Assembly (NCBI GenBank): GCA_018263355.1
Contig: JAANXH010000043.1
Location: forward strand, 443 to 64,442
From: Candidatus Woesearchaeota archaeon
GTDB lineage: Archaea; Nanobdellota; Nanobdellia; Woesearchaeales; JAGVZT01
Length of the DNA: 64,000 nt
Reading direction: 5' to 3'
Each line of letters opens with the position of its first letter. Within the stretch, counting starts at the first letter, position 1. The notes below the pieces were generated by a model that worked only from the letters and a program-made list of their open reading frames with translations, had not been told where the DNA came from and did no database searches. The position numbers and the translations under genes are program-made. Shown piece after piece: positions 1 through 32,511 of the stretch.

Positions 1-590
1 TGGTGTTGCCATTTTTTACGTAATGTATAATAAATTAATGAAAGAGGAATAAAGGCAAATGAATCAATTGCACTTTTCAAATCATTCAAATATCTAATAA
101 GATCATCATCTGCATTTAGGGTTATCATCAGTGCCATAAAGTAAAGCAGTGCTTTTATCCAATGGTTATTTACTTTTTTCCACGCTACAAAACAAAGTAG
201 TGCAACTACTCCAAATACCAATAATAAATAAATCCAAATCAACCAATTACCTATTAATTTAAACATAAAACTTCTCTGAAAGTTAATTAAGATTACAACC
301 ATGGTAGCCAAAATTACGGCTATTACTGTTCTTTGCCTTTGATTGGCCTGGTCAAAACCAATGCCAAGTCCAACAAAAAATATTGTAACTAATAACACCC
401 AGATTAAAAATAAAAGAAAACCAAAAGCTCCTTTTGGAGTCCTAAACATAGGCAGAGTAAATATTTTTCCTATGAATTGAAATACATCTTCTAAAAGATC
501 AATTACCTCTTGAAATTGATTTTGGGCATATACTACTGAAGAACATAATACTAGTACAAACAGTACAACTAATACAAATCTCTTTTTCAT
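1..590 (-). CDS. Multi-pass membrane protein, hypothetical (runs off window edge)
   Basis: Not in ORF track. Manual translation from ATG at 590 (MKKRFVLVVLFVLVLCSSVVYAQ...) stays open to base 1 and has several hydrophobic segments. Confidence 0.7.
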   Translation of the reverse strand, partial: MKKRFVLVVLFVLVLCSSVVYAQNQFQEVIDLLEDVFQFIGKIFTLPMFRTPKGAFGFLLFLIWVLLVTIFFVGLGIGFDQANQRQRTVIAVILATMVVILINFQRSFMFKLIGNWLIWIYLLLVFGVVALLCFVAWKKVNNHWIKALLYFMALMITLNADDDLIRYLNDLKSAIDSFAFIPLSLIYYTLRKKWQH

Positions 591-718: not shown

Positions 719-1309
719 ATGAAAAAACTACAAACAATTATGGAGGATATCCAGAAATCAGGCACAGAAGATACTGAGTCTAATGATAACCTGACATTAT
801 TTAGAAGAATAAAGGAATTCTTTGGATTGGATGCTGAAAGTAATATTGATAGATTCATAGACATGAGATTTATCCATAAAAGATCAATTGAAATTTCTCC
901 TAAGTATTTACAAAGATTACAGCAAGATAGAGGTTATAGAAAGATTGTCAAACAATATTTAATTAGATTTCCTGGCTATGAACATGTTGATGATTGTTTG
1001 CATTATGCAGCTGAAACTTTGGAATGTATTGAAGATTTTGGAGGGATTTATCAAGATGCAGTAAAGATGCTAAAATCTGTTCAGAAGTTTATCTTTTATA
1101 TAAAACCAAGTCCCTATAGGGCTTATAAAGCACTTTTTTCAGATATTGCAAAAAGATGCAATTCAAGAAATGACTATTTTGGATTTATTAATTATGCAAA
1201 TATTATGTATAAAAAAAAGCGCAAGAAACTTAATTATCGTGATTATCATCTTCTCTCATTGAGGTCTTTTAATTTATTTGAAGATTTTGATAAATATGAA
1301 TATGGGTAG
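719..1309 (+). CDS. Hypothetical protein, paralog of 2743..3351
   Basis: Track ORF 593..1309. Start moved to ATG 719 (MKKLQTIME), about 30 nt after a TTTATAT box at 689 and clear of the divergent gene. Shares the DMRF..KRSIEISPKYLQRL block with 2743. Confidence 0.7.
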   Translation: MKKLQTIMEDIQKSGTEDTESNDNLTLFRRIKEFFGLDAESNIDRFIDMRFIHKRSIEISPKYLQRLQQDRGYRKIVKQYLIRFPGYEHVDDCLHYAAETLECIEDFGGIYQDAVKMLKSVQKFIFYIKPSPYRAYKALFSDIAKRCNSRNDYFGFINYANIMYKKKRKKLNYRDYHLLSLRSFNLFEDFDKYEYG

Positions 1310-1403
1310 TAATCTTCACTACAACATAACCTTTTATGGAAAATCCCCACATAGATATGTAGAAGATTCAAAGAGGACAGAATTATTCTGTTTTTGTTGA
1401 ATT

Positions 1404-1814
1404 GTAAAGAAAATCTGCTGTTCAGAGCTAATCTCACTCCCCTTTGGTCCGTTCCTGAGTTGCTCTGGCAACCATACTCACTTCATTACATTTCGTTCCA
1501 GGGTTGCTCTGGCAACTTATCTCCCACCTAAATGTCGGAAAACAAAGTTTTCTGATCATCATCAGAAATTTAAAATTTCTGAGAGGTGGGAGCTTTTACG
1601 CTCTTCACTTTGATAAGCAGATATACTCACTAACGTTCCAGACATTTAGCTGTGCTAAATGTAAGTTCACTTCGTTCGTTACCTTTAGCAAGCTAAAGGT
1701 TTTCAGACTCCAGAAGCGAGGCTTATGGATGCCGAACAAAACACGAATGTGTGGAGTGACTGCATCATAATGCTACGGGCTAAAGCCCGGGGATTTAGAC
1801 CCATCGCATTCTGA
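1404..1814 (-). mobile_element. Non-autonomous palindromic element copy A (411 bp), IS200/IS605-like ends
   Basis: Shares terminal and core blocks with 8180-8317 and, inverted, with 31281-31802. Subterminal hairpin CGGGCTAAAGCCCG; GTAAAGA at both junctions; no transposase ORF. Confidence 0.7.
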
Positions 1815-1870
1815 GTAAAGATTATTTTATAAAATGTGGGTCATGGAATAAATATTGCAGGTGAGTAAAA

Positions 1871-2197
1871 ATGAAAAAACTACAAACAATTATGGAGCAG
1901 ATCTCAGGTAATTCTGTTAGATTTGATAAAATTTTACAAGATATAGTTAAGTTTGGACAATCTTTTGACAATCCTGTGATCTGGTACAGAGGTCATGGAA
2001 TAAATATTGCTAGTGAGGAAAATGGTTATTTCAACTCAGGAGGTGTTGGATTTGAAGGGTTGGCACCTTTAGTTGCTGCTCATGGCAAAAAGCACGATAA
2101 TGCAATTCAAACTGAAATTTGCAAAGTCAAGGAAGAATCTAATCTATTAATAGAATTTAGAGAAGAATGGGCAAGAGGCAACTCAGGAAGAGATTGA
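1871..2197 (+). CDS. Hypothetical protein
   Basis: GGTGA RBS at 1860; first 27 nt identical to the start of the gene at 719. Confidence 0.65.
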   Translation: MKKLQTIMEQISGNSVRFDKILQDIVKFGQSFDNPVIWYRGHGINIASEENGYFNSGGVGFEGLAPLVAAHGKKHDNAIQTEICKVKEESNLLIEFREEWARGNSGRD

Positions 2198-2198
2198 T

Positions 2199-2636
2199 TT
2201 GAGATATCATGAATTACTGCTCTCAAAAGTCAGAAATACACTATCCTACAATCCAAATCAAGAAGATTATGGATTTCCAATTTCTTTTCAATCACGGCTT
2301 GAAAAAAATTATTCACGTTTTGATCATGATGAAAAAAATAAACCCAAGCAATCTGCAACAATCACTTTAGGTGTAAGTTCAAGTAATAGGCAAGAGCAAA
2401 AAATTCTTATTAGAAAGGTTCTGCAATATCTTAACAAAGTCCACAAGATTCCACAAGAAAATATGAGTAAACCAGAATTATATAGAATAGAACCAGAGAT
2501 TACATTAACATTATACAACACAAAAGATATGGCCCTTGAAGAGAGAATTGCTGCATTTGATGAAAAGATTGAATTTATTAAATCTTGTTTGGATAAAGGA
2601 GGCCAATTCTGTTTAACTAAATATTATGGCAAGTAA
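2199..2636 (+). CDS. Hypothetical protein
   Basis: 145 aa ORF abutting the previous gene; TTG start. Confidence 0.6.
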   Translation: MRYHELLLSKVRNTLSYNPNQEDYGFPISFQSRLEKNYSRFDHDEKNKPKQSATITLGVSSSNRQEQKILIRKVLQYLNKVHKIPQENMSKPELYRIEPEITLTLYNTKDMALEERIAAFDEKIEFIKSCLDKGGQFCLTKYYGK

Positions 2637-2742
2637 ATAATTTTTCTTTTTCTGAAAATCTTTCGAACTTTCCAGAAACTTTCCGGAAAAACCACCAAAA
2701 TGTCTTTTAAACCAAAAAAAAGAGTTATATTTGGTGAGCGGG

Positions 2743-3351
2743 ATGACAGTTGCACTTGAAAGTATTATGGGAGACATTGCAGATTATAAAACAAGTTCAA
2801 ATAGATTAGAACAAAAAATACTGAGTATAGAAAATATTATTGATTCTATTGATAGATCCATAGATATGAGATTTATCAATAAAAGATCAATTGAAATTTC
2901 TCCTAAGTATTTACAAAGATTAAAGCAAGATAGAGGATATAGAAAACTAGTAAAGAAATTTATGAAATACTGCCCAGGTTATGAACATATGGATGGCTGC
3001 TTGGAATATTCAGCAAAAACACTAGAACTCATTGCAGAGTTTAATGGTAAGTCAGAAGATGCTGTAAGTCTGTTAGATACGCTTCGCAGTTTTAGTTTTG
3101 AGGAACAGTTAGTACCATTTAAAGTATTTCATATCTTTGAAGAGCTAAGTGAGACCTGTGGATCAAGAAATGACTTCAATGGTGGGATAAATTACTTTAA
3201 AGAAGTATATTCAAGAAGTGATAAAAAGGAGGGACACCATATTCTCCCTGGTTACTCAAACCTCCCACTAGATCACGAGAATATTTTCCATAGTTATAGT
3301 AGATACAAAAAAGGTGAAAAATGGTTGGGTTACAAACTGGGTTACATATAA
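2743..3351 (+). CDS. Hypothetical protein, paralog of 719..1309
   Basis: Track ORF 2731..3351; ATG 2743 follows a GGTGA RBS; shared core with 719..1309. Confidence 0.7.
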   Translation: MTVALESIMGDIADYKTSSNRLEQKILSIENIIDSIDRSIDMRFINKRSIEISPKYLQRLKQDRGYRKLVKKFMKYCPGYEHMDGCLEYSAKTLELIAEFNGKSEDAVSLLDTLRSFSFEEQLVPFKVFHIFEELSETCGSRNDFNGGINYFKEVYSRSDKKEGHHILPGYSNLPLDHENIFHSYSRYKKGEKWLGYKLGYI

Positions 3352-3493
3352 TGTGTAATCTTCACTACAACATAACCTTATATAGAAAATCATCTAAATA
3401 AACAGTAAGAAATTCAAAATAAGCAGAAGTATTCTGCTTTAAGGGGATGATTTAGATCTTTATAATTAGCGATAGCTTTAGAGGTGGAAAAAA

Positions 3494-3907
3494 GTGGATA
3501 AAAAAATGAAAATATTAGGAAATTTAAGAAATGATGCAAGACAAAGTCTTGTAAGTATTTCAAAAAAAACAGATATTCCAGTAAGCACAATTTATGAGAA
3601 AATAAAAAAACAAGAAGACTCTACAATTAAAAGGTACACTTCTTTGCTTGATTTTCCTGCTTTGGGTTTTAACATAAGAGCAATGGTTTTAGTCAAAGGT
3701 GATTTAGAAGAATATCTAACAAATCACGAAAATGTAAATTCTGTTTTTCAGTTGAGTGAAGAGTTTGATTTCATAGCAGATTGTATTTTCAAACATATGT
3801 CAGACTATACTGAATTTATTCAGAAACTGGAAAACAAAAAGGTGTTTTTTGTAACAAACGAACTGAAAAGAGAGGAATTTCTTAGTATAAGGAGGGAGAA
3901 AAAATGA
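3494..3907 (+). CDS. Lrp/AsnC family transcriptional regulator
   Basis: N-terminal HTH (LRNDARQSLVSISKKTDIPVSTIYEKIKK), LDFPALGF linker and C-terminal RAM-like domain. Confidence 0.85.
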   Translation: MDKKMKILGNLRNDARQSLVSISKKTDIPVSTIYEKIKKQEDSTIKRYTSLLDFPALGFNIRAMVLVKGDLEEYLTNHENVNSVFQLSEEFDFIADCIFKHMSDYTEFIQKLENKKVFFVTNELKREEFLSIRREKK

Positions 3908-4431
3908 AAAAATTAAATGCAAGACAGAAATTGGTTGCACAACTTGCAGGTGCAGTTATTGTTGGTGGCGTGATAGTTGGAGGAGTAAATTATGCAATAA
4001 ATAACTCAGATAATGCACTAGCAAAACCTGCTATGGCATTGGAGACCAAACTAATTGGGGTTGAGCCTGGGAATTATGTTGATGTAGCAACAGCATATAT
4101 TGCTCAAAACCCACAAGATATGGAGCAGTATGCAGAAAATCTTACAACTTTTTTGTATGCAGCTAATGAAGCTGATCTTCTGACTGAAGATGCGAAAACA
4201 TATTTTTTTACTGATGCTGCACAAGATATTCCAGCAGATTTAGCAGGAAGAGTTTGCAGTGAAAATGTTCTGCCAAGAATAAGTGAAGAACAACAATTAG
4301 AATATGTAATGGCAGGGATGATGGAATTAGACAGCAAAGAGTATGGTCCATTGCTAAAACAAATGGGTATTAGTCTAAAAGACGATGTCTTAGAGGATAT
4401 CAAAGGGTGGTGGGAATCTTATGGGAATTAG
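3904..4431 (+). CDS. Membrane-anchored hypothetical protein
   Basis: N-terminal hydrophobic helix (LAGAVIVGGVIVGGV); ATGA overlap with the Lrp gene. Confidence 0.7.
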   Translation: MKKLNARQKLVAQLAGAVIVGGVIVGGVNYAINNSDNALAKPAMALETKLIGVEPGNYVDVATAYIAQNPQDMEQYAENLTTFLYAANEADLLTEDAKTYFFTDAAQDIPADLAGRVCSENVLPRISEEQQLEYVMAGMMELDSKEYGPLLKQMGISLKDDVLEDIKGWWESYGN

Positions 4432-4630
4432 GAAAAGATTGTTGACATATGCAGTTGTTCTTGCAATTGGTTACAATATAGGTAGCTGCATTACAAAAGC
4501 TGAATATAATCAGCATACTCAAAGTGCAGAAACTACATACATAACAACTGATGTTGAAAATATTCAGTCTTTAGACAATCTGACAAAATTACCACAAGCA
4601 GAGAGGAGAATAGAGGATCTTATTCCATGA
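4421..4630 (+). CDS. Small membrane protein
   Basis: 69 aa, N-terminal TM helix, translationally coupled on both sides. Confidence 0.6.
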   Translation: MGIRKRLLTYAVVLAIGYNIGSCITKAEYNQHTQSAETTYITTDVENIQSLDNLTKLPQAERRIEDLIP

Positions 4631-5127
4631 ACACAACCAAGAAAGGAGCAATGCTTGAAATTTATGTTAAGCAATTGTTCAAAGACTTGTGTAAGCTAAA
4701 GGTTAGGAGAAATGTGCAGTATAGATGCAAGGGAGTTTTGACTAACAAAAACAAAAGAGCTCAGATTGATGTTGAATTTTGGGATCTTAAGGGTAAAACC
4801 ATTGTGGAATGTAAGTATTATGGTTCAAGTAAGGTTTCAGTAACTGATGTTGATGAGTTTTACCAGAGGTCAAAACTTGTCAGACATACTAGAAAAATAA
4901 TGGTTACTAACACATGTTATACACAAGGAGCAGTGAACACAGCAAAAGAACATGGAATAAGACTGATTGATGCAGACCAATTAAAGAAAATGGATTATGA
5001 ACGATTAAGTTTAGTAGGAATGATAAAAGACAGACTTGGCAAAAGAAAAAGTCTTGATGAACAGATAAAGGATGCTGACCTAAGGAATTATGGAGAATAC
5101 TACTCAGCAAAACAATATTTAGTGTGA
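4627..5127 (+). CDS. Mrr-like (PD-(D/E)xK) restriction endonuclease domain protein
   Basis: QIDV...IVECKYY catalytic motif; downstream V...DV..F, IMVTN, YT..A..A..GI.LID pattern typical of Mrr_cat. Confidence 0.75.
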   Translation: MNTTKKGAMLEIYVKQLFKDLCKLKVRRNVQYRCKGVLTNKNKRAQIDVEFWDLKGKTIVECKYYGSSKVSVTDVDEFYQRSKLVRHTRKIMVTNTCYTQGAVNTAKEHGIRLIDADQLKKMDYERLSLVGMIKDRLGKRKSLDEQIKDADLRNYGEYYSAKQYLV

Positions 5128-6170
5128 GGAGGATGAAAATGCAAGAAGAATTAGTTCAAGAAACAATGGTTCATGGAACAGATTTTGATTTAGATAGATT
5201 TGAACAAGCTAATAGTGAAGTTGAACGTCATGTTATGCATGGCGCATCTGAAAGCTCAACAATAAGAGCTGAGGTTGATGAATTAAATCAAGAAACAATA
5301 CAAACTGCAGCTGAGCAAAGAACAGAGAGTCCAATAGTTCAATGGTTTTTGAAAACATATTGGACTCTAACAAATACTGATGCTGTCCAGCTAACAAAAA
5401 AACTATCTAAGGACATAGAGGGAGTTTTAAAGCAGAGCAAAAAAGACCTAAGTTCAATTGTTACTGACATAAACAGAAGCAGAAGGGAGGAGGAAAAGCA
5501 TTTGGAAGATCTTGGAGATCTTGCACAAACTCATAGAACTTTTAAGTATGCAAAACAAGGGTATAGGCAACAGATAGATGAAATTGATTCTTTAGTTGCA
5601 GCCAGATCTAATGGTGGAAATACTCAATCCCTTGAATTAAAAACCTTACCTGAGAAATTCTATGAATTTAGTTTAAGGGAGCTTAAAAGGACAAGAGGAG
5701 AAATTGAAACAAAAATGATGACAACAGACATTGAACTGCAATCTATATATAGTGATATCAGAATTATTGGGGGACAAATCAAAGCAGCTGAAAAGACTAC
5801 TTTGAGACATATTTCACAGTATAATCAAGCATTGTCAAATAGAAATAGGACATTAGAGCATCATATAAAAGTGTATGAGCCTCAATATGTTAAATTAATA
5901 GAAAGACAAGCAAAAATTGCTGAAACAGAAGAACAATCTGAGATTGTAATTAACCAATACCTAAAGGTTTGCGAGTCTTTAGTAAAAGGAGTGGATGAGA
6001 GAAGACACTTATTGTTGTCCTCCTACCAGGCACAATTTGATGATACAAGAGATGCAGAAAGAGCAAGAAAAAGTATTGACAAAGCATTTGATACTCAGAT
6101 TGAAAATGGGAGAATTGGTGGAGAAAAACTACAAAGTGATGCTGAAGCTGTCATGAATCAATATTTGTAG
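5124..6170 (+). CDS. Coiled-coil hypothetical protein
   Basis: 348 aa, E/K/Q-rich helical composition; likely start ATG about 5133 after GGAGG. Confidence 0.7.
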   Translation: MRRMKMQEELVQETMVHGTDFDLDRFEQANSEVERHVMHGASESSTIRAEVDELNQETIQTAAEQRTESPIVQWFLKTYWTLTNTDAVQLTKKLSKDIEGVLKQSKKDLSSIVTDINRSRREEEKHLEDLGDLAQTHRTFKYAKQGYRQQIDEIDSLVAARSNGGNTQSLELKTLPEKFYEFSLRELKRTRGEIETKMMTTDIELQSIYSDIRIIGGQIKAAEKTTLRHISQYNQALSNRNRTLEHHIKVYEPQYVKLIERQAKIAETEEQSEIVINQYLKVCESLVKGVDERRHLLLSSYQAQFDDTRDAERARKSIDKAFDTQIENGRIGGEKLQSDAEAVMNQYL

Positions 6171-6202
6171 TTTTTTATTTTTTTATTTTTTTTGGAGGAA
6201 AA

Positions 6203-7621
6203 ATGATAAAACTAGAATTAACTCAAGAGCAAATTGAAAAAAGATCATTTGATTTGGAAAGCAGGATTAATGGGTTTTCTTTTAAAATAAAAGATAAGTT
6301 AATTTCAGCTGGAAAAAAGCTAGAGGACTCAAGTTCTGAAAGCGCAGTCTCAGCTATTTATTCTGGTTTCTCCATATTGGATTTGATTTGGCATTCAGTT
6401 GTAAAAACCCATAGAAAAGAAAGTATTGTTGGCATATTAACTGCTGCATATATCGGGGCTGATTATGGTCTGTACAATCTTACTGCCAAAAAAACAGGTC
6501 GAATTAAATCAATGTCAAGAAATGTTTTTTCTGGTAAACAAATTGATTTTAATCAAACTTATCCTTATCCACTAGATGATTTACTTGATATATATTCCAA
6601 TGGAGTTGACGAGTACAAAAATGCTGGGCTGTCAAATATCACAGAACAATTCTTTAACTGGGTTAAAAATAGAGTTATTGTAGAGAGTAGCAAGTATCCT
6701 GAAATAAAAGAGCAACTACAAGATGTTAGAGGTAATATTGACCAGATTTATTCTTTTAGAGGTATTTCTTCAAAAGTAAAAAGGAGTGTTGATAAGTCAA
6801 ACAAACTTATCTGGAATAAATTTGGAGGATATCATAATGTGGTTGATTACCTTAAAACACAGGCAAAATTTATTCAAAATTTTGATTATTTGATCTCTTT
6901 GGATGTTTTAGATCATGGAGATCTTTTACCCAAAGCTACTATTTTACATGGTCCTCCAGGTACTGGAAAAACAACCTTATTAAGGATATTTTGCAATGAA
7001 GCAGGTCTTCCATATGAGATGTTTAGCTGCAGTGAAATAGGAAGCCAGTATGTTTTTGGAAGCTCAATAAATATTCAAAATTATTTTGATGAAGCTGCTA
7101 GTTATATTAAAAGAAAAGAAAGTAAATTTGCATTAGTTGTTATTGATGAACTTGATGCACTTGGAAGAAAACGTGCCTATAAATCAAATGGAAGCAATGA
7201 AGACAATAAACTTGTAACAACAATATGTGAGAATTTAGATGGTCATCTTGCAGTAGATGGAGTTTTAGTGTATGGATTAACAAATATGGGAGATGTGCTT
7301 GATCCTGCCTTAACTCGACCTGGAAGGTTTGAAACATGGCTTGAGATGGGTTTTCCAAATAGAAAAGAGCTTAATGAGATATTCAGTATATATCTTGCGG
7401 GTAGGGGAGTTGGAAAAGTTGATGTTGAACATATAATCAACAAATATGTGGATTTAAAGTGGACTGGAGCTCTTGTTGAGAAAGTTGTAATTGATGCAAA
7501 AAGAGCAAAACTAGATAATCATCTGGATGGACAAGAACAATATTTGATTAATACTGATGATGTTTGCAAGCAGATTGAATTATATCAAAGAAGAGATCTT
7601 AATAAAAAATGGCTGGAATAA
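6203..7621 (+). CDS. AAA+ ATPase (classical CDC48/FtsH/Vps4-type single module) with unknown N-terminal domain
   Basis: Walker A GPPGTGKT, Walker B VVIDELD, SRH TN...LDPALTRPGRF. Confidence 0.85.
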   Translation: MIKLELTQEQIEKRSFDLESRINGFSFKIKDKLISAGKKLEDSSSESAVSAIYSGFSILDLIWHSVVKTHRKESIVGILTAAYIGADYGLYNLTAKKTGRIKSMSRNVFSGKQIDFNQTYPYPLDDLLDIYSNGVDEYKNAGLSNITEQFFNWVKNRVIVESSKYPEIKEQLQDVRGNIDQIYSFRGISSKVKRSVDKSNKLIWNKFGGYHNVVDYLKTQAKFIQNFDYLISLDVLDHGDLLPKATILHGPPGTGKTTLLRIFCNEAGLPYEMFSCSEIGSQYVFGSSINIQNYFDEAASYIKRKESKFALVVIDELDALGRKRAYKSNGSNEDNKLVTTICENLDGHLAVDGVLVYGLTNMGDVLDPALTRPGRFETWLEMGFPNRKELNEIFSIYLAGRGVGKVDVEHIINKYVDLKWTGALVEKVVIDAKRAKLDNHLDGQEQYLINTDDVCKQIELYQRRDLNKKWLE

Positions 7622-9456
7622 AACAAAAGAATTGGTTTGAAGTTCAGAGTATGCTAGCTAATGATGATGACCTTATTAAAAAAGTATGTAGTGGGTTTTC
7701 TTCTTACTCTGAGCAGATAAATAGTATAAAAGATCAACCTCTAAGTAAATCGTCTGTTGACAAGATTGTATATCTCACACAAGAGTTAGACGAGTGTTTT
7801 GCAATTCCAGAAAAGTACAGCTGGGTTTATAACCTGGACGATATTGTATTAGGAGCATCTGAAAAAATAAATAAGATTGGTCAACTAAAAGATGAGTTTT
7901 TCAATTCTTTGGATTATTTTTTTGATGAGTTGTCACAGGGATGGGATTCTGCAAAAAAAAGGGTTGAATCTTGGGAGAGAAAATATGGGATAGAAGATCT
8001 ATTAGATTCAAGAGATAAACTAAATTCATTTGCAGAAACATATGATTTATTATTTACACGATTAGGTCAGGATCATCCTATTCTTAATGCACGAATGATC
8101 AGTCAAATTCAAGATTATGTTCAATTTTTAGATGATTTTTCAAATGTGGATGTAGTTTACTTTGAGTTTAAAAACAAATGTAAAGAAAATCTGCTGTTCA
8201 GAGCTGATCCCCCACATAAAGGTGGGAGCTTTTACGCTCTTCACTTCGACACGCAGATTTTCAGACTCAAAAGTCCTCGCCCTAAAGGGCGGGGCTTTAG
8301 ACCCACGGACATTTTGAGTAAAGAACTTGATTCTAAAACAAAACAAGAGCTAAATGTATTAGGCAGAGAATTGAAAAAAATTAGAAAGACCTATGACAAA
8401 ACTTGTGCAAAACATAGGCCTTTTTTTGACAAGCTTAAGCAAAACTCAATATTTGCATATAAGGAGAGATTTATTGATATGCAAGAGCTTGACAAAAGGA
8501 TTGATTATCTTAAGAAAAATGTACAAAATATAGATATTGCACAACAGGATTTAGATGAATGGATTGATTATTATCAACAAACTCTGGATTATTTATCTGA
8601 AGAAAATGAAATTGAAAAAAGTCACATTGAATGGGTTGCTGACTGCAGTACAACAACTCCAAAGATAGTAGAGGATTGGGAAAATAATATATATGTTGCA
8701 GAAAAGATTGGACAAGTAAGTGCATTAAGAAAAGTTGTACATAATAGAGTAGAACAAGAATTAAATAGAATTAAAACTTATTTGGATTCAAGTTTAGATG
8801 ATTTTTCTGACTTGCCTAGTGATACAATTGATCTTGAAGAAAGACTAGAAGAATTACATCAATTCAAAATAATGTACAAACTTATTGGTGAGCCTACACT
8901 TGAGTGTGAAAAAGTACATGAGAAAATCGAGGCCAAGATCAGACAGTCCAAAATTCCCAAAACAATTGCTCAAACTACAAAAAAACCAAGCTCAGTACAA
9001 CAAGATAATATGCCCTATTGGAAACCAATTATTAGAAATCAGAGTGGATATTTTGATATTGCAACCCATTTATTAACAATTGGTTTTCCATCAGGCACAT
9101 ACATGAATATTATGAATACTATGCTTGGAAAAAACAATCAAGGTAGCTGGGCAGAAAAACTTAGAACAGTAAGCCAAGATCTGGAAGATTTACCTATTGC
9201 AGGTTCTCTTCAAGATTTAGATTATATGTATCATTTAGAATATGCTCTTAGGGAAAGTATGAATAGAGGAAATATGGATCATTTAGTTAGCAGAAATAGT
9301 CAAGGATGGAAATTAGCACATCAAGTTTTAAATCAATTAAATAAATACATTTCCATAAGTGAGGACAACATAGGGTTATCTGCAAAACAAATTGAGCTTA
9401 GAAAGCCTGTAACTGGTCCAGAAAACACATACAACCCCAGTTTGGCACTGTATTAG
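7609..9456 (+). CDS. Helical/coiled-coil hypothetical protein carrying a 46-aa in-frame element insertion
   Basis: 615 aa ORF; codons at 8180-8317 derive from the repeat element. Confidence 0.7.
   Translation: MAGIKQKNWFEVQSMLANDDDLIKKVCSGFSSYSEQINSIKDQPLSKSSVDKIVYLTQELDECFAIPEKYSWVYNLDDIVLGASEKINKIGQLKDEFFNSLDYFFDELSQGWDSAKKRVESWERKYGIEDLLDSRDKLNSFAETYDLLFTRLGQDHPILNARMISQIQDYVQFLDDFSNVDVVYFEFKNKCKENLLFRADPPHKGGSFYALHFDTQIFRLKSPRPKGRGFRPTDILSKELDSKTKQELNVLGRELKKIRKTYDKTCAKHRPFFDKLKQNSIFAYKERFIDMQELDKRIDYLKKNVQNIDIAQQDLDEWIDYYQQTLDYLSEENEIEKSHIEWVADCSTTTPKIVEDWENNIYVAEKIGQVSALRKVVHNRVEQELNRIKTYLDSSLDDFSDLPSDTIDLEERLEELHQFKIMYKLIGEPTLECEKVHEKIEAKIRQSKIPKTIAQTTKKPSSVQQDNMPYWKPIIRNQSGYFDIATHLLTIGFPSGTYMNIMNTMLGKNNQGSWAEKLRTVSQDLEDLPIAGSLQDLDYMYHLEYALRESMNRGNMDHLVSRNSQGWKLAHQVLNQLNKYISISEDNIGLSAKQIELRKPVTGPENTYNPSLALY
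8180..8317 (-). mobile_element. Minimal element copy C (138 bp), in frame within a CDS
   Basis: Same core as copies A and B; hairpin CTCGCCCTAAAGGGCGGG; GTAAAGA at 8180 and 8318; removal restores ...NKCKELDSK.... Confidence 0.75.
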
Positions 9457-9765
9457 TGTGACTGATGGTGTTCAGAATTCGTCTGTGCCGTGAATGACAT
9501 GAAATGACCTTTTTTGTTATGAATCCATGGCCAGGCGTAGTTTTTCTGCAGGAAAAAAGGAGTAGGATTTTGGACATCATCAGTTTGTAGCACTGCCCTC
9601 AGTTTACATGGCAACCAGTTTTATCACTAAAAAAGAAAAACATATATATATGTAATATATATCTCTAAATATAAGAGGTGTATATGTTTTTGGTGAATAT
9701 ATGCCAACAAAAATTGTTCATAACAAGACTTATTCTACCAAAAAGAATGGCGCAAGGGGAGGGGT

Positions 9766-11004
9766 ATGAGACAAGAAGATTTAATTGGTAAAGTTATAAG
9801 TGAATACAAAGTAGAGGACAGGTTGACGTCATCTACTCATTCTGCAATATTCCTTGTGAGACATATTAGAATGGATCATTGGCGTAGAGTTATGAAAACT
9901 CTAAATAAACATTTGACAAGAGATCAAAGATTCATGAGGCAAATGAAAAATGAACAAAATATTGTTGGTGAGTTTTCTGATTCTGCTTTAGAATTTAATG
10001 TAAGACCTTATGATGTTGGAGTAATTAAAAATACAGAAACTCACTGGGACAATAGCCCATATATTATTATGGAATATGTTGAGGACGGAAGTTTAAAAGA
10101 AAATTCTCAGATTAGTTTGGAACAAAAAGTTTTTTGTATTGCTCAGGCTACTAGAGGTCTAGACGCTGCTCATGACGAGGGTGTGATTCACAAGGATTTT
10201 CACGACGGAAATGTTTTACTTGTGATGAAAAAGAATCAGATTATTAGTGTTAAAGTTTGTGATTATGGTGTTGGAGCAAATATGGATGATACTGGTTATT
10301 ATGGAGGATATTCTAAGGCTCCAATTTTATACAAAGCACCTGAACAAACAACTGGGGGTAAAGAGAAGGGATTAAGAGAAGGAAAACACACTGATGTATA
10401 TCAGGTTGGAGCAACTTTGTTGAACATTACCAGTGGTCTGCAAATCACAGAAGGAGTAATTCAAGAGTTATACAATGGGTATAAAGATGTGCCAGAGCCA
10501 TTAAAAGATATTATTAAACAATGCATTAGTTTTAATCCAAAAAATCGTCCAAGTCTTAAACAAGTAAGAAAAACTCTACTTAATTTAGATGAATTAGAAA
10601 AGGAAACTAAATTTGCTTCATTAATTGAAAAAGCATCACAAGAATTACATGGCATTGGAAATAGGTATAAAAGAAGATCTTGTAATACCTTAACTGGTAA
10701 AGATATTGATAATTTGTTTAAAATCAGAAATAGATATTACAAAAAATGGGGAAGAATGGATTATACTATTCCAGTAGGCTCAATTGAAGCAATTATTAAT
10801 AGGCTTTTAGAAAGAGATACAATTATAATGGGTGAGTTTGCAGCTCCTTATTGCAATGAAAAATTAAAAGTTGTACATGCACCAAAAAGTAAGAAACAAA
10901 GAGAGAAAGCTGAGCAATATAGTAAGGCACTACAGAATTGGCAAAAACATCTTAATAGAACCATTTATGTTGATCCAGCATCTTGGAAAATGAATATAAA
11001 ATGA
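9766..11004 (+). CDS. Hanks-type Ser/Thr protein kinase
   Basis: VMK lysine, alphaC Glu, HKDFHDGN catalytic loop, DYG, YKAPE, TDVYQVG. The glycine-rich loop is degenerate. Confidence 0.85.
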   Translation: MRQEDLIGKVISEYKVEDRLTSSTHSAIFLVRHIRMDHWRRVMKTLNKHLTRDQRFMRQMKNEQNIVGEFSDSALEFNVRPYDVGVIKNTETHWDNSPYIIMEYVEDGSLKENSQISLEQKVFCIAQATRGLDAAHDEGVIHKDFHDGNVLLVMKKNQIISVKVCDYGVGANMDDTGYYGGYSKAPILYKAPEQTTGGKEKGLREGKHTDVYQVGATLLNITSGLQITEGVIQELYNGYKDVPEPLKDIIKQCISFNPKNRPSLKQVRKTLLNLDELEKETKFASLIEKASQELHGIGNRYKRRSCNTLTGKDIDNLFKIRNRYYKKWGRMDYTIPVGSIEAIINRLLERDTIIMGEFAAPYCNEKLKVVHAPKSKKQREKAEQYSKALQNWQKHLNRTIYVDPASWKMNIK

Positions 11005-13049
11005 AAAAAACTTTTGAGGATATAAGTCAGATTATTCAAGACCAAAAGAGAAGTTTGAAGGGCAAACCTCTTGAGTATTGTATTGGCATAGTTGGTCTTG
11101 GAAAAGTTGGCAGAGAGGTTTATACCCAGATGCTTAACACACGCAGAGTAAATGAAATTCAACTTTTTACAACAAAACCCGATAGAACTGGACAGTTTTT
11201 AGAACGGCAAAATATCGCGCACACACATACTTCTGTAATTGTAAATGATTTTACTGAACTTAAACATCAACATGAAAATTTAGATATTGCAATACTTACT
11301 GTTGATCAAAGTAATTACTTAAATAGATTTCCAGACATATCAAGAGATGATGTTTTGGAAAGTAATGTTGATTTACTTGTTAAAACAGGAAATTTGCTTA
11401 AAGATTATAAGTCTTCAGTTATTGTAGTTACAAATCCTGTTGATTTGGCTGCATATATTGTCTGTGCTAATGCTGGAATTTATCCCGAGCAAGTAACTGG
11501 GCTCAGCCACACAGACCTGGCTAGATTCAGAAAAAATATTAGGGATGTATTTATTGGCAATGGTTTGGACCCAAAATTTGTAAATATGATTGATGTTGAT
11601 GTGTATGGTCCACACTCCACAGAAGCTACATACGTATTTCAAAATTTTGCTAATTTACCTAGACAGGTTTTTACATTTTTATCAAACGAAAACATATATT
11701 CCAAACTAAAAGAAGCAGCAGCACAATATGCTAATACTCAGTTTGAATTAGGCTCTGCACTAAAAGAAGGTACAGAGAGAGAAACTGCTGTTTCAATAAG
11801 AGAGGTAGTTGAAGCAATTATCCAAGAAGATAAGAGAGTTGGAGCTTCTGTTTATATAAACCCAGCAGAGATTGGTGTTAAAGGAATTATCCCTGGTTTA
11901 TTTATGGGCTATCCCACCAGATTTGTGAGTGGCGTAGCTTCTCCAATTCTTGGTAACTTTATTGATGAATCTGATCAGGCAAGAGTAATAAAAGGATATC
12001 ATACTCTTGAGTCAAAAATAATTAGATTACATGAATCAGGAATAATACCAGATTATGTTGAAAGGAGTTTTGATGTTGTAGACATTTATGAAACTAAACA
12101 GACAAAAGTTAATTTACCTAAGTTAAATATTCAGTTTCAAGTTATTGGAGCATGTGCTAATCAGGTTATTAAATGGCCAGATATGGATAATCCAAATTTA
12201 AAAGAACCTATTGATCTTGAACAGAGAGTTACTGCGTTTAGCTGTGCTGATATTGATGAAGAATTAAATTTTATTGTAGGCCATAGGAGAGGAATAACTA
12301 TACTGAGTAAATCAAAAAAAACAGATTATAAATATGAATCTAATCATCGGGTTAGAAAAGTAGGTTTGATAAAAACAGATAGAACTTATTTAGTAGGTGC
12401 GAATTCAAGTAGTGTTTTTGTGTTTGATAAGGATAACCCAGATAGTCCTGTATTTGATATCAATGGATTTAATCATAAATTAGAAAGTTTTGAATTAGGA
12501 TATTACAAAGATAGACCATATTTATGGGTTGTAGGAGATGGAGTTAGTGAATATAGTTTTTTGGAATCAGAAAAATTAAACTTTTATGAGGTTGGAGGTG
12601 TTGAAAAAAAGATCAAAGCACTATTAAAAATAAGATCAAAATTATATGGTGCGAACTTAAATAAAGTGGTTAGATGGAATTTGAATTCTCCTGGTTTGCC
12701 AAGATGGGAATCTGATGAACTTCCAAGTATATCTGTAAGTTGTATTGAATATGCTGAGATTAATGGTTGTAAATCTTTATTTGTTGGGACAGGTAATCCT
12801 GAAGTTTATAGAATTGATGCAAATTCTGGGGAATTAATTAAAGTTTATCAGAAAAAACAAAGTAATCTTAATGGTACTGGACAAGTTAAAGTTTTGGATA
12901 ACAGATACTTACTAACTGCTGATAGAAATATGACTGGTCATACATATGAGTCCGCAATTAATATTTGGGATATTCATGATAAAAAACCAAGTATTGTTTT
13001 GCCAACAGGTTTTAATTCTGGCATAAAGGGTTTGAAGGTCTTAAAATGA
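11001..13049 (+). CDS. LDH/MDH-like dehydrogenase fused to a C-terminal beta-propeller (WD40-like)
   Basis: GIVGLGKVG, SRDD..N, VTNPVD, TDLARF, GPHS in the N-terminal half; beta-rich repeats ending ..RW, ..IWD in the C-terminal half. ATG 11001 overlaps the kinase stop (track start 10983). Confidence 0.75.
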   Translation: MKKTFEDISQIIQDQKRSLKGKPLEYCIGIVGLGKVGREVYTQMLNTRRVNEIQLFTTKPDRTGQFLERQNIAHTHTSVIVNDFTELKHQHENLDIAILTVDQSNYLNRFPDISRDDVLESNVDLLVKTGNLLKDYKSSVIVVTNPVDLAAYIVCANAGIYPEQVTGLSHTDLARFRKNIRDVFIGNGLDPKFVNMIDVDVYGPHSTEATYVFQNFANLPRQVFTFLSNENIYSKLKEAAAQYANTQFELGSALKEGTERETAVSIREVVEAIIQEDKRVGASVYINPAEIGVKGIIPGLFMGYPTRFVSGVASPILGNFIDESDQARVIKGYHTLESKIIRLHESGIIPDYVERSFDVVDIYETKQTKVNLPKLNIQFQVIGACANQVIKWPDMDNPNLKEPIDLEQRVTAFSCADIDEELNFIVGHRRGITILSKSKKTDYKYESNHRVRKVGLIKTDRTYLVGANSSSVFVFDKDNPDSPVFDINGFNHKLESFELGYYKDRPYLWVVGDGVSEYSFLESEKLNFYEVGGVEKKIKALLKIRSKLYGANLNKVVRWNLNSPGLPRWESDELPSISVSCIEYAEINGCKSLFVGTGNPEVYRIDANSGELIKVYQKKQSNLNGTGQVKVLDNRYLLTADRNMTGHTYESAINIWDIHDKKPSIVLPTGFNSGIKGLKVLK

Positions 13050-13312
13050 GCGAAAAAGATGAAGGAAAAAGGCTTGATGACATTATGCTGGGTATCCAAC
13101 ATTATTCCCCTACTCAAATTAAAGCTAATAATATGAGAAAAAAATCTGTACCAATTGTAAAGTGGGCTTTAGCAGGGATTGCTTCAATTGCATTGGTTAT
13201 TAGCGGGTTTTTTATTGAAAAAAATTATGATGTTCTTAGCAACTTAGCTAAAGAGCCAGTTTTAGAGACTACACCTGCTAGGGGTGAACCAACACGGACT
13301 CTATTGTTTTAG
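13046..13312 (+). CDS. Small single-TM protein
   Basis: Central TM helix WALAGIASIALVISGFFI; coupled to the previous gene. Confidence 0.65.
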   Translation: MSEKDEGKRLDDIMLGIQHYSPTQIKANNMRKKSVPIVKWALAGIASIALVISGFFIEKNYDVLSNLAKEPVLETTPARGEPTRTLLF

Positions 13313-13360
13313 AGGAAATTGTCAGTAGTGCTGACAAATCCCAGTAAATATTGATTAAAA

Positions 13361-14743
13361 ATGAAAAATAATAATAAAGAAATGAAAAGATTAGACCAGA
13401 TAATTGGAGATATTGAAGGCCAAAGACCTTTGGCTGATATCTTAGAGGAAATCAAAAATAAACCTACTCCAAAAAAAGAGGAATCTAAAAGTAAAAAATT
13501 AACTGAAAAAATTGCTATTGCTATAATTGGTGGATTAGCCGGCCTTACAGCTATTTTTGGATTAGGTTCATATATCTCTAACCAATATTCTGCCACCCCT
13601 CAAGTGGTTACTAAAACTCCTATTGAAGAAACTCAGCCTAAACCGAGTTTTACTGCAGAACAAGAGATTTTGCCAAGCTTAACTCCACAAAGTCAGCAAC
13701 TCTCTTTAGCAACACAAGAGCCAGTTCTAGATGAGTCTTCAGAAAGTGTTTCACAAGAAGATTTTAGCTCAGTCAATTGGCTTACTGAGAGGATTGGTCA
13801 AAATACAATTGAATCAGAATATGTTTCTGCAGGTAGGTTTTTTTATATTTCAGCAGGTTTTTTCAAGATTGGAGATTTACAATGTTATGCACATGAAGGG
13901 CAGGTTTGTGTTTATATTACCCAACCTTCTCAAGATAAAGAGATTATTATTGAAGGATTAGACCCAGGTGCTTCTTGGATTGCTATAAGTGAAGCAAATT
14001 CTGCAATGCAAGTTTTAGAAGATAGATCTCCTTTTTTCTGGACACAAGACAATTGTGATATTAATGGATGTGATTATGCTAGAGTTTTTATTGATAAAGA
14101 AAATTGTGTTGAAAAATTATTAGTTTATCCCGAGTTCCAATTAGAATATTTAGAAAGATGTGAAACAGGTTCTAGTTTTGTTCCAATTTCTTTGAAAAGT
14201 TATTCTGAAATTAGTTCTCCAGAAACAAATCTTGGAATGGAGCCAGGATTTCACAATATTCAAGGTATAGATTTTGAAAATGGCTGGAGGATTTCAACAA
14301 AGTGTAATGACAACCTGTATAAAGATGTGTATGATTCTTATAATATAAGTGCAGGAGTTGAAAATGTTAAATCTGTATATTTCCTGATTCAGGCTGGATG
14401 GGCATTTAATGAGGATATGGATAAACATATTGGGAGTATCCAGTTAGATTTTGCTGATGGTTCTAAGCTCGTGGAAGAATTGATTTTAGGAAATAATATC
14501 AGAGATTGGACACGAGATAAGTCAATATCAGCTACAACTGTGAGCGCAGACAATATTTTTGAAGCTTGGAGAGGCACAGCTCATGGATATACTGGTGGAG
14601 TTGATATTTTAAGATTAGATATACCCAATTCTATGCAAAAGGGTTATTTAGATAATATTCTTATTCAAGACCTTACCCAGGAAAATCTTGAAAATATTGA
14701 TCCCTGTATCTATGTGCTTGGAATAACTTTAGAAACACAATGA
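13361..14743 (+). CDS. Membrane-anchored surface protein with P/T/E/S linker and extracellular domains
   Basis: TM helix IAIAIIGGLAGLTAIFGLG, low-complexity linker, Cys-containing beta-rich domains. Confidence 0.7.
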   Translation: MKNNNKEMKRLDQIIGDIEGQRPLADILEEIKNKPTPKKEESKSKKLTEKIAIAIIGGLAGLTAIFGLGSYISNQYSATPQVVTKTPIEETQPKPSFTAEQEILPSLTPQSQQLSLATQEPVLDESSESVSQEDFSSVNWLTERIGQNTIESEYVSAGRFFYISAGFFKIGDLQCYAHEGQVCVYITQPSQDKEIIIEGLDPGASWIAISEANSAMQVLEDRSPFFWTQDNCDINGCDYARVFIDKENCVEKLLVYPEFQLEYLERCETGSSFVPISLKSYSEISSPETNLGMEPGFHNIQGIDFENGWRISTKCNDNLYKDVYDSYNISAGVENVKSVYFLIQAGWAFNEDMDKHIGSIQLDFADGSKLVEELILGNNIRDWTRDKSISATTVSADNIFEAWRGTAHGYTGGVDILRLDIPNSMQKGYLDNILIQDLTQENLENIDPCIYVLGITLETQ

Positions 14744-15351
14744 AAAGATTAGATGAAATACTAAAGGAAATTGAAAGTAAACCTACTCCAAAAGTAACTA
14801 CAAAGAAAACTATTTATCAACCTAAATTTAGTAGAAAAATACTTTTATTAGGTATTTTAACAGGAGCCACAATAACAACTATTTGTGGGGGACTTTTTTT
14901 TATTATTTCTCAAGAGACAACTCTTTTACAACAAAAACAAGTATATCCTACGTTGGAAAACCCAGTTGTGAGTTCTCAAGTGGTTGAAGCTAAGCACACA
15001 ATGCAAAATCAGGAATTTTTAACAAATACTCCAGAGACTGTTGATAGTGAGCCAAGTGCAACAAACACTCCAGAATTTACTGCTACAGTCCAACCTACTT
15101 ATACAGCACTTCCTACATATAAAACATATCCTACAAATACTCCTATTCCAACAATCCCATTACCTACAAATACCCTGATCCCCACTAATACTCCCAAACC
15201 AGATCCATACTCAATTTCATTGCACTTAGATGAGGGACATAGTGCATATGAATATTGTGGAAGTGCTAAACTTATTGCTAATCTTCCGCCTAACCGTAAT
15301 GTAGATGTTTTACTCAATGTTGTTCAAGGAGATTCCAGTATGTTCTTATGA
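14740..15351 (+). CDS. Membrane-anchored protein with Pro/Thr-rich linker, possibly truncated
   Basis: TM helix then PT repeats (PTNTPIPTIPLPTNTLIPTNTP); only about 45 aa follow the linker. Confidence 0.65.
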   Translation: MKRLDEILKEIESKPTPKVTTKKTIYQPKFSRKILLLGILTGATITTICGGLFFIISQETTLLQQKQVYPTLENPVVSSQVVEAKHTMQNQEFLTNTPETVDSEPSATNTPEFTATVQPTYTALPTYKTYPTNTPIPTIPLPTNTLIPTNTPKPDPYSISLHLDEGHSAYEYCGSAKLIANLPPNRNVDVLLNVVQGDSSMFL

Positions 15352-15429
15352 TTCAAATGCTGTGATAGATGTCAATATTTCACATGGGGTTTAGGGCTTA
15401 GAATATTATGATGGCAAGGTGAACAGATA

Positions 15430-16500
15430 ATGAGAAAATTAGAAGATATACTTATTGATATCGAGAGTTCATACCGTAATGAACCTATTCCTGTTTACCT
15501 AGAAGGATTGCAGGAGGAGTTACAGAGTATTGACAGTCACAAAGTGTTAAAAAAAGGGATATATGATATCGATTTTCAGATTGTTGTTGAGGAAAAAGGA
15601 GTTTTAGAAATTAAGCCTGGTGCTAAATTATTTTTTAGAGAAAATGCAGGGATTTTATCGTATGGCAAGCTGATAGCCAAAGGCACAAAAGGCAAAGAAA
15701 TTATTTTTACAGCTACGAAGGATAAATGGAAGAATATTACTATAGCAGGAAGTTATACTGATGGCAGTATATTAGAGTATTGTGAAATAAGCAGGGGTTC
15801 AGGCAGGAGGATTATCCCTAGTACTGACCACTTTAATTTAACAAAACATATTTCAAATTATGGAGGAGGTTTAGGCATATACAAAGCAAATCCAACTTTA
15901 AAAAACAACACTATTCAGAGAAATAGCGCCAAAGGAGGTGGAGGAGGAATATATATTCATAAATCTACGTTAGCTTTAATCAATTGTATAGTCAAAAACA
16001 ATACAGCTGGTGGTGGAGGTATACATACTTTAGAAGGAGATGTAACATTATATAACAATACCATTCAGAATAATATTGTAAAGCATTGTGGAGGAGGATT
16101 AAATTCATTTTCAACAAATCTGAGATTAGAAAATAATAGAATTGGAAGCAATTATGCAAAAGAAGGAGGAGGATTGTATTTGAACCACAGTACTGGTTTG
16201 CTAATAAAGAACAAGATATTGGATAACAAGGCAAGAGAAGGTGGGGGATTAAAGCTTTGTCATTCAGATGTTGTTTTAGAAGATAATATATTACAAGGGA
16301 ATATTTCCCGCTCTGGTGCAGGCTTATATGTTTGGCATTCTAGCCCACTATTACACAAAGATAAAATAATTCATAATATAGCCGAAAATCAAGGTGGAGG
16401 ATTATGGATTTATCTAATCTCTGATGTACAATTAAGAAATAATACAATCAAAAACAACATACCAGATGACATTTATGATCAAGCTAAACACAAGTCCTAA
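15430..16500 (+). CDS. Right-handed parallel beta-helix repeat protein
   Basis: Repeated N.A..GGG(I/L)Y and N..I..N motifs. Confidence 0.8.
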   Translation: MRKLEDILIDIESSYRNEPIPVYLEGLQEELQSIDSHKVLKKGIYDIDFQIVVEEKGVLEIKPGAKLFFRENAGILSYGKLIAKGTKGKEIIFTATKDKWKNITIAGSYTDGSILEYCEISRGSGRRIIPSTDHFNLTKHISNYGGGLGIYKANPTLKNNTIQRNSAKGGGGGIYIHKSTLALINCIVKNNTAGGGGIHTLEGDVTLYNNTIQNNIVKHCGGGLNSFSTNLRLENNRIGSNYAKEGGGLYLNHSTGLLIKNKILDNKAREGGGLKLCHSDVVLEDNILQGNISRSGAGLYVWHSSPLLHKDKIIHNIAENQGGGLWIYLISDVQLRNNTIKNNIPDDIYDQAKHKS

Positions 16501-32259: not shown

Positions 32260-32511
32260 ATGGAGTATGAATTTGAGATTGAAAAGATTATTAAGCAGAT
32301 TAACAAACAAAATGCTAAGATTGTCTGTTTGCAGCTTTCAGATGGTTTAAAACCTAAAGCTAAGACCTTACAAGAAGAAATTGAAAAAAATACCAGAGCA
32401 CAAGTTATATTATGGGCTGGAACCTGTTTTGGAGCATGTGATATTCCTGTGGAATTAAAAAATATGAATGCGGATTTATTAGTACAGTTTGGACATAGTG
32501 AGTGGAAATGA
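32260..32511 (+). CDS. dph2: Diphthamide synthesis Dph2 N-terminal fragment
   Basis: LQL.DGLK, FGACD, QFGHS motifs; only 83 aa. Confidence 0.8.
   Translation: MEYEFEIEKIIKQINKQNAKIVCLQLSDGLKPKAKTLQEEIEKNTRAQVILWAGTCFGACDIPVELKNMNADLLVQFGHSEWK

Follow-up and report, generated by a model that had tools for sequence, protein, structure and literature searches.

A gene island whose proteins share an N-terminal peptide

We analyzed a 64,000-nucleotide (nt) stretch of contig JAANXH010000043.1 from a Candidatus Woesearchaeota archaeon (the window; positions are numbered over this whole stretch). A tightly packed array of co-oriented genes, referred to here as the island, occupies the left 16.5 kb of the window, and eight open reading frames (ORFs) between 719 and 16500 begin with variants of one short peptide, the tag, with the consensus (K/R)-L-(D/E)-x-I-(L/M/I)-x-(D/E)-I. 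An earlier note on this DNA had claimed such a shared N-terminal motif on at least eight proteins, and we located each of the eight motifs where it had been claimed (Table 1). Core archaeal genes lie on the flanks of the island, and GC content is flat, being the same in the island and in the rest of the window. The archaeal context was confirmed from the archaeal large-subunit rRNA of syntenic relatives together with TrmB and ABCE1. We found no tRNA or Rfam matches in the window. The sequence is present in marine DNA metagenomes only, with no RNA runs.

Table 1. Tags of the eight carrier genes and other island features discussed in the text
Feature	Position	Strand	Details
Tag of A719, MKKLQTIMEDIQ	719..754	+	gene 719-1309; family 1; all-helical
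Double tag of B1871, MKKLQTIMEQIS-GNS-VRFDKILQDIV	1871..1948	+	gene 1871-2197, continues in 2199-2636
Tag of C2743, MTVALESIMGDIA	2743..2781	+	gene 2743-3351; family 1
Tag of D11001, MKKTFEDISQIIQ	11001..11039	+	gene 11001-13049; weakest tag; start overlaps the kinase stop
Tag of E13046, MSEKDEGKRLDDIMLGIQ (core, EGKRLDDIMLGIQ)	13046..13099	+	gene 13046-13312; 88 amino acids (aa); N-in single-pass
Double-tag cassette of F13361, MKNNNKEMKRLDQIIGDIE-GQ-RPLADILEEIK (first core, EMKRLDQIIGDIE)	13361..13456	+	gene 13361-14743
Tag of G14740, MKRLDEILKEIE	14740..14775	+	gene 14740-15351
Tag of H15430, MRKLEDILIDIE	15430..15465	+	gene 15430-16500
Hanks-type Ser/Thr kinase	9766..11004	+	first gene of the array kinase-D-E-F-G-H; candidate tag reader
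Genes between tagged genes	3904..9456	+	3904, membrane; 4421, small; 4627, Mrr-like nuclease; 5124, coiled-coil; 6203, AAA+; 7609
Polytopic "NQFQ" membrane protein	3..590	-	divergent from A719

A719 and C2743 are paralogs that are 42% identical over their full length; an ortholog of C2743 (P0126) starts MTVALESVMNDIA. The start of A719 was predicted from a TATA-like TTTATAT ~35 nt upstream and from homologs whose sequences begin with the tag. What B1871 has in common with A719 is limited to the first 11 residues. D11001 has a Rossmann domain (Ldh_1_N) preceded by a ~25-residue extension that includes the tag, followed by a large C-terminal region with no Pfam match (residues ~170 to 682). E13046, F13361, and G14740 share a homologous N-terminal module, consisting of the tag, a KPTPK-type basic linker, and a transmembrane (TM) helix, but their ectodomains differ. 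The TM helix of E13046 spans residues 34 to 59, directly preceded by RKK. F13361 has a TM helix at 47 to 72 and a 370-aa orphan ectodomain; a search for its homologs among 5.8 billion proteins returned only the protein itself. In G14740, a KPTPK linker leads to a TM helix at 34 to 57 and a Thr/Pro-rich ectodomain. H15430 is a right-handed beta-helix protein without a signal peptide, for which a single-sequence AlphaFold model was uninformative (mean predicted local distance difference test score, 46). Given the paralogy of A and C and the module common to E, F, and G, the number of independent bodies is ~5 to 6 rather than eight. Thus, the earlier description of the bodies as completely different was too strong, although several unrelated bodies remain.

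A 2-nt indel splits one gene into B1871 (108 aa) and the ORF that follows it (2199-2636; 145 aa). Contigs from run X1 (depth, ~47) have an extra TT after position 2166, giving a single 255-aa protein; hence, the window holds either a frameshifted allele or an assembly error.

Score statistics and rarity of the tag

The tag begins at residue 2 or 3 in six carriers and at residue 8 or 9 in E13046 and F13361; for F13361, it would begin at residue 2 if Met-8 is the true start. Two extra, internal copies are present: B1871 has VRFDKILQDIV (position 1916), and F13361 has RPLADILEEIK (position 13424), the latter already noticed in the earlier note. With a position-specific score matrix, the resulting ten tag sites scored 21.7 to 29.1 bits, whereas the best of ~128,000 other six-frame positions in the 64 kb scored 9.7 bits. 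Leave-one-out scores ranged from 9.3 to 25.5 bits. The lowest were those of D11001 (10.1 bits) and of the second copy in F13361 (9.3 bits), and the other eight sites were clear. In agreement with the earlier statement that no core gene in the window has the tag, the tag is absent from all genes between 16.5 and 64 kb.

We also built a hidden Markov model (HMM) from 20 tags of the window and its relatives. Every tag scored at least 4.3 bits with this HMM; the top non-tag score, 3.4 bits, was that of the first helix of the TrmB regulator (16504-17241, minus strand), which starts MEELLKILENIG. This helix mimics the hydrophobic spacing of the tag, as does the start (MEYEFEIEKIIKQIN) of a Dph2-like N-terminal fragment (32260-32511, plus strand). 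Both helices are parts of known folds, and they are the main potential false positives in any tag scan.

Strict DNA patterns for the tag matched the window three to four times. A degenerate version encoding M-[KR]-[KR]-L-[DEQ]-x-I-h-x-[DE]-I-[EQ] matched it four times and 100 shuffled versions of the window not once. A slightly narrower pattern gave 22 single matches in 596 Gb of species-representative genomes and one match in 2.9 million viral contigs, and the broader pattern gave 32 single matches in a metagenome collection. None of these outside matches in genomes, metagenomes, or viral contigs were clustered, and most lay either at Met codons within the genes of a single Bacteroidota protein family or in ordinary helices at N termini, such as those of XseB- and CobT-like proteins. 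We concluded that the tag is a real and nonrandom N-terminal peptide.

Conservation of the peptide in related islands

We compared the island with those of two relatives, GCA_964419615.1 (L033) and GCA_964354685.1 (L037), and with contigs from two other samples, ERR10503155 and ERR10503158 (L028/L029). L033 is syntenic with the window on both sides, having an NQFQ membrane protein on the left and TrmB, a metallophosphoesterase, and ABCE1 on the right. It keeps orthologs of C2743 and of B1871 (L033:8499), the latter with both tag copies, the first of which is a different variant, MTGIKFQPILDEIG. It also encodes, at L033:2358, a soluble 239-aa protein whose N terminus, MNNKKE-RPFTEILSEIA-EYEDGN-VLLAEILQEIG, is homologous to the double-tag cassette of F13361. 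Everything between a point midway through the Mrr-like gene and TrmB is missing from L033, namely, the genes for the coiled-coil proteins, the AAA+ protein, and the kinase, and genes D to H; the L033 Mrr protein is truncated at 61 aa. This difference of ~11 kb is either a deletion in L033 or an insertion in the window.

Family 1 is small, with only 8 real homolog clusters among 1.84 billion representative proteins. The tag is kept even in distant members (E values, 1e-9 to 1e-16; 18 to 26% identity), which start MTVVTLDQLLEDII, MTVITLDQMLEEII, MDELELMLEQVV, and MDELEIMLDEII. A locus search with a three-sequence alignment found no metagenome relatives of family 1, and no Rosetta-stone fusion of family 1 with another island protein was found. 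A match to the 3,237-aa protein P0128 was rejected as spurious and cumulative, this being a repetitive protein resembling plant NLRs.

Among orthologous tags, the differences are synonymous (GAA/GAG, GAC/GAT, and ATT/ATA) or conservative (I/V, L/M, and D/E), and tag positions 6 and 9 are unconstrained. The 90-nt stretches that precede the tags show no relationship to one another. Since codons differ, upstream DNA is unrelated, and changes are synonymous or conservative, selection acts on the peptide. For the same reasons, we rejected an element acting at the mRNA level.

Portability of the tag

The earlier note had inferred that the tag was grafted onto its carriers, and the comparisons with homologs bear this out. 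The nearest beta-helix homologs align with H15430 from approximately residue 38. In place of the tag, they start with a signal peptide (P0005, P0025, P0036, and P0071), a TM/lipobox anchor (P0020), or an immunoglobulin-like domain, while a few have neither; a signal peptide is missing in P0076, P0035, and P0060. The tag of D11001 lies ~25 residues ahead of strand 1 of the Rossmann domain and hence outside the fold. The double-tag cassette heads a TM protein in the window (F13361) and a soluble protein in L033. Two stretches of identical DNA reported earlier were exact: 27 nt in the leaders at 719 and 1871, and 15 nt (at 13460 and 14779) in those at 13361 and 14740. Since the L033 ortholog of B1871 has another tag variant, the 27-nt identity between A719 and B1871 is best read as a recent gene conversion between tags. 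An AlphaFold model of family 1 from an 8-sequence alignment (predicted template modeling score, 0.73) places the tag in a separate first helix (residues 2 to 15) followed by a loop (residues 16 to 21); model confidence was 63 to 68 for the helix and loop and 83 to 93 for the core. A Foldseek search with this model gave no significant match in the PDB. Together, these data support the conclusion that the tag is a portable add-on outside the folds that it heads.

The N terminus of P0020, MLEQKLEGKPTKKRS, is followed by a TM helix ending in GGC. This start resembles the tag-KPTPK-TM module of F13361 and G14740 with a degenerate tag, and P0020 may be the form that the beta-helix protein takes in a relative, with a membrane anchor.

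We considered whether the tags might have no function in common and might instead reflect shared descent of N termini, gene conversion between neighbors, and the bias of an AT-rich genome toward K, E, I, and L. Proteins encoded in such genomes often start with MK(K/R)L. Moreover, paralogy accounts for A719 and C2743, a common module accounts for E, F, and G, the 27-nt tract in A719 and B1871 is of the kind left by conversion, and look-alike helices head TrmB and the Dph2-like protein. However, the rest of the six-frame translation holds no comparable match, and the hydrophobic positions have been kept through synonymous and conservative changes between genomes as distant as 23 to 30% body identity. 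In addition, the tag is present on D11001 and H15430, whose domain families are without it, and its placement is strictly N-terminal. An absence of common function is therefore quite improbable.

Helix properties and cytoplasmic topology

Each tag consists of Met, one or two basic residues, and then a three-turn amphipathic helix, with a hydrophobic stripe at tag positions 4, 7, 8, and 11 (L/F, I, L/M/I, and I/V) and an acidic polar face. The hydrophobic moment is 0.47 to 0.73 in 9 of the 10 tags, and net charge is 0 to -2, likewise in 9 of 10. Behind the tag is a linker containing Pro, Ser, Thr, or Gly. A membrane-binding amphipathic helix was rejected on account of the acidic polar face. The hydrophobic h-region of Sec, Tat, and class III signal peptides is missing from the tags, which have a mean hydrophobicity near 0, acidic residues, and no TM-like stretch.

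TM segments are absent from A, B, C, D, and H. A cluster of Lys and Arg residues intervenes between tag and TM helix in each of E, F, and G. Since the tag precedes an N-in TM anchor in these three proteins (positive-inside rule), it faces the cytoplasm.

These properties bear on the suggestion, made in the earlier note, that the tag serves an export machine. According to this explanation, the tag is a nonclassical signal for export or hand-over that replaces the Sec signal peptide, acting through a dedicated route (e.g., the island AAA+ protein and membrane proteins) or in contact-dependent transfer to a host. The closest homologs of H15430 are mostly secreted or anchored, and H15430 has the tag at the corresponding position; the island also encodes several membrane proteins and a classic-clade AAA+ protein; and a constant N terminus on variable bodies may be likened to polymorphic effector systems. 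However, E, F, and G are already signal anchored by their TM helices and have the tag in the cytoplasm, so the suggestion sits poorly with three of the carriers. The tag is acidic and without a hydrophobic core, and signal peptides are missing from three beta-helix relatives as well. Furthermore, no known secretion, shell, or capsid family was matched among the island proteins scanned, and the tags and the AAA+ module are separated in relatives (see below). We consider an export signal unlikely.

Candidate partners

The Ser/Thr kinase is the candidate partner best linked by operon structure. Five of the eight carriers (D to H) are co-operonic with the kinase, which heads the array, and the kinase-D-E and F-G junctions are 4-nt overlaps of stop and start codons. 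If the tag were a kinase docking motif, it would recruit substrates to the kinase, which would phosphorylate the Ser/Thr(-Pro) linker behind the tag. What is observed in this respect is the gene linkage and the presence of Ser/Thr-rich linkers behind the tags, with S-P or T-P in E13046 (YSPT), F13361 (KPTPKK), G14740 (KPTPKV), P0130 (NSPVEP), and P0132 (NTPVEP). Kinase docking motifs generally consist of a basic cluster and, after it, spaced hydrophobic residues. In addition, the closest homolog of H15430 without a signal peptide, P0076 (JGI 3300075153), comes from a gene array that also encodes a PP2C phosphatase and a Ser/Thr kinase. On the other hand, linkers rich in Pro, Ser, and Thr are common in any case; A, B, and C are 7 to 9 kb upstream of the kinase gene and belong to other transcription units; in L033 and L037, the islands have tagged genes with no kinase gene nearby; and the gene for the beta-helix relative P0035 (L072) is in a BatA/VWA operon without a kinase. 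Substrate docking on the kinase is hence a doubtful explanation of the tag.

The N terminus of the kinase itself was rejected as a tag, being the start of the kinase domain. PADLOC matched the kinase to mad6 and PD-T4-6 and the AAA+ protein to IetA; all are generic domain matches, and we did not read them as pointing to a known defense system.

The AAA+ protein 6203 (6203-7621) has a single, classic-clade AAA domain that is Cdc48/VAT-like (E value, 2e-42 to VAT) behind a novel 240-aa N-domain. Its best structural relatives by sequence are Cdc48, VAT, and AFG2, not Vps4. Pfam matched only AAA-type domains, with no match for the N-domain (residues 1 to 240) and no MIT or known peptide-binding domain; the N-domain might conceivably have a remote MIT-like fold. 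A four-gene module (3904, 5124, 6203, and 7609) that encodes a 175-aa membrane protein, a 348-aa coiled-coil protein, the AAA+ protein, and a large helical protein is kept at 23 to 48% identity in L028/L029 (L028:348-4524). There, it is followed by a gene for an MscS-C39 peptidase fusion, which in the window is 32 kb away (41192-42700).

We asked whether the tag could be a degron or extraction handle recognized by this AAA+ unfoldase, which was one of the partners suggested in the earlier note. Such unfoldases usually take hold of their substrates by terminal peptides, and AAA proteins that extract proteins from membranes grasp the cytoplasmic N-terminal tails of bitopic membrane proteins. The novel N-domain attached to its Cdc48/VAT-like AAA domain is also of a type that generally chooses the substrates. 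However, the L028/L029 contig has the module with no tagged gene on its 7.2 kb, and L033 retains three tagged genes in an island without the AAA+ region. Since the tag and the AAA+ module each occur without the other, the link between them is weakened, and no peptide-binding domain was detected in the N-domain. Recognition of the tag by this unfoldase is accordingly improbable.

The NQFQ family is the only one found beside tagged genes of family 1 in all three genomes examined. Its members, of which there are two to three paralogs per island (L033:5045-8379, minus strand; L037:5527-7240, minus strand), have a cleavable signal peptide followed by NQFQ(E/D)V.DLL.DV, and one paralog has a long coiled-coil tail. 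They always lie beside tagged genes of family 1 or of the B type and have no Pfam match.

The site of the variable island after the 23S rRNA gene is conserved in the relatives: in both L033 (L033:1-1088) and L037 (L037:1-1902), the island begins immediately after the archaeal 23S rRNA gene, at its 3' end. The genes that the island holds vary widely from genome to genome; L033, for example, has Bro-N and MNT/HepT toxin-antitoxin genes.

Three stretches of the window, 1235-1851, 8022-8638, and 9256-9872, have summed contig depths of 643, 201, and 254, respectively, in run X1, i.e., 3 to 10 times that of their flanks (~65 to 70), and many contig joints connect 1410-1764 with 8208-8267. These stretches look like copies of a multicopy short repeat. 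One repeat copy is in frame within gene 7609 (8180-8317), and another adjoins the truncated B ortholog in L033 (86% identity over 36 aa; L033:8736-8843).

A putative docking helix

The tag is thus a portable N-terminal peptide of a hypervariable archaeal island, conserved at the peptide level across genomes. Its retention in relatives and its movement between genes suggest an address or docking label that has not been described before. We propose, with a probability of roughly 45%, that the tag is a portable, lineage-specific, putative docking helix of ~11 residues. The tag would be on display in the cytoplasm, at the N-terminal end of the soluble proteins A, B, C, D, and H and of the N-in single-pass proteins E, F, and G. 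Its hydrophobic stripe may pack on a complementary helix or groove of one shared partner, or on other tags to form a small helical bundle, for which the tandem double tags would be a ready-made hairpin. The outcome would be that a changing set of island proteins is gathered in one membrane-proximal assembly. The cotranscribed Ser/Thr kinase is a plausible regulator, possibly with the Ser/Thr-Pro linkers that follow the tag as its targets. The tag would have spread by exchange of cassettes and by gene conversion inside the hypervariable island, which in relatives is just downstream of the 23S rRNA gene.

Several points weigh against a docking helix. The set of carriers is small and is partly explained by descent, namely, the paralogy of A719 and C2743 and the common origin of the whole N-terminal module of E, F, and G. 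Short helices of such composition are ordinary elements of folds, as in TrmB and the Dph2-like protein at 32260, although both of these score below every tag. In the family 1 model, the tag helix could be integral to the fold. A helix of 11 residues is short for a stable coiled coil. The restriction of the tag to islands holds for this 64-kb window and for the islands of two relatives. Finally, the partners are candidates only, and the act of docking, the geometry of the bundle, and the choice of partner are predictions from sequence. Of the docking or targeting peptide suggested in the earlier note, then, the portable cytoplasmic helix stands, and the docking itself is putative.

A more far-reaching version of the docking helix would make the tag the address code of an undescribed sorting system of Woesearchaeota-type DPANN archaea. 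The changing enzymes and surface proteins of the post-23S island would be routed to a dedicated membrane machine, for which the candidates are the NQFQ proteins and/or the 3904-5124-AAA+-7609 module, for display, export, or hand-over to a host, under the control of the Ser/Thr kinase. This version is a long shot.

Cells and viruses use short terminal address peptides on unrelated proteins to load microcompartments, capsids, and secretion machines. We know of no such peptide in DPANN archaea, and full-text literature searches turned up no account of one in this group. The cell biology and host interactions of DPANN archaea are largely obscure, and the carrier proteins are almost all "dark matter." A validated tag would serve as a handle for the partner machine, would define a functional set among hypothetical proteins, and would give a compact, transferable docking peptide.

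Comparison with known systems

In its proposed mode of action, the tag comes closest to the encapsulation peptides of microcompartments, the capsid targeting sequence of phage T4, or the cytoplasmic N-terminal docking peptides of bitopic proteins such as PilN. Polymorphic toxin systems use N-terminal trafficking domains, with a constant N terminus on variable C-terminal bodies. The island resembles them in its constant N termini, variable bodies, exchange by recombination, and variable gene content. In contrast to those systems, the tag is a peptide rather than a domain, and among the bodies are an LDH-like enzyme and a beta-helix. Scans of the island proteins recognized no toxin or immunity families, most bodies being orphans. 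A pairing of the kind formed by MIT-interacting motifs and MIT domains (Vps4/CdvC type) is not apparent, Pfam having found no MIT domain in the N terminus of 6203.

In phage T4, the capsid targeting sequence is an N-terminal peptide of ~10 residues on unrelated proteins (IPI to IPIII and Alt) that can be transferred from gene to gene. The tag is similarly an N-terminal leader of ~10 residues common to unrelated proteins. Unlike the T4 sequence, it has no viral context and no prohead protease, and it is also found on membrane proteins. Searches of PHROGs with A, B, 2199, 3904, 5124, 7609, E, F, G, and H gave one weak match, to a PHROG of unknown function; searches with the island proteins of the relatives were equally uninformative.

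The encapsulation peptides of bacterial microcompartments (BMCs), such as those of PduP, PduD, and EutC, are terminal amphipathic helices that dock, and that of PduD (...KLLRQIIEDVL) is a look-alike of the tag. The tag may be compared with these peptides as a short terminal amphipathic helix with a stripe at i, i+3/4, and i+7, a poorly conserved linker, and unrelated bodies, and it may likewise dock as a helix. The terminal helix and flexible linker typical of BMC peptides are both seen in the tag (moment, ~0.5 to 0.7; modeled helix at 2 to 15, then a loop). It differs from them in its length (~11 versus ~18 residues) and in its host, a DPANN-type archaeon. Among 17 island proteins scanned, there was no BMC shell protein (PF00936, BMC-H; PF03319, BMC-P), and E, F, and G, with one TM helix each, are not soluble lumen cargo. 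In a 2025 preprint, microcompartments are reported in Hodarchaeales (Asgard archaea), and its authors state that they knew of none earlier in Archaea (PMC12747264). Since the island proteins scanned include no shell proteins, the context is not viral, and some carriers are membrane bound, the tag belongs with neither the BMC nor the T4 peptides.

PilN-PilM and FtsN-FtsA are pairs in which a conserved N-terminal cytoplasmic peptide of a bitopic membrane protein docks a cytoplasmic partner. The tag is unrelated to these peptides in sequence and also heads soluble proteins, and no PilM- or FtsA-like partner was seen in the island. In architecture, however, E, F, and G are like PilN and FtsN: the conserved N-terminal peptide is short, and a basic linker joins it to a single TM helix, beyond which lies an external domain. 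In the AKAP helix and RII docking-dimerization domain, and in the docking domains of polyketide synthases and nonribosomal peptide synthetases, an amphipathic helix plugs into a small helical bundle and so places enzymes on a scaffold. The tag has no homology to any of these, but by analogy, its tandem double copies could form such a bundle.

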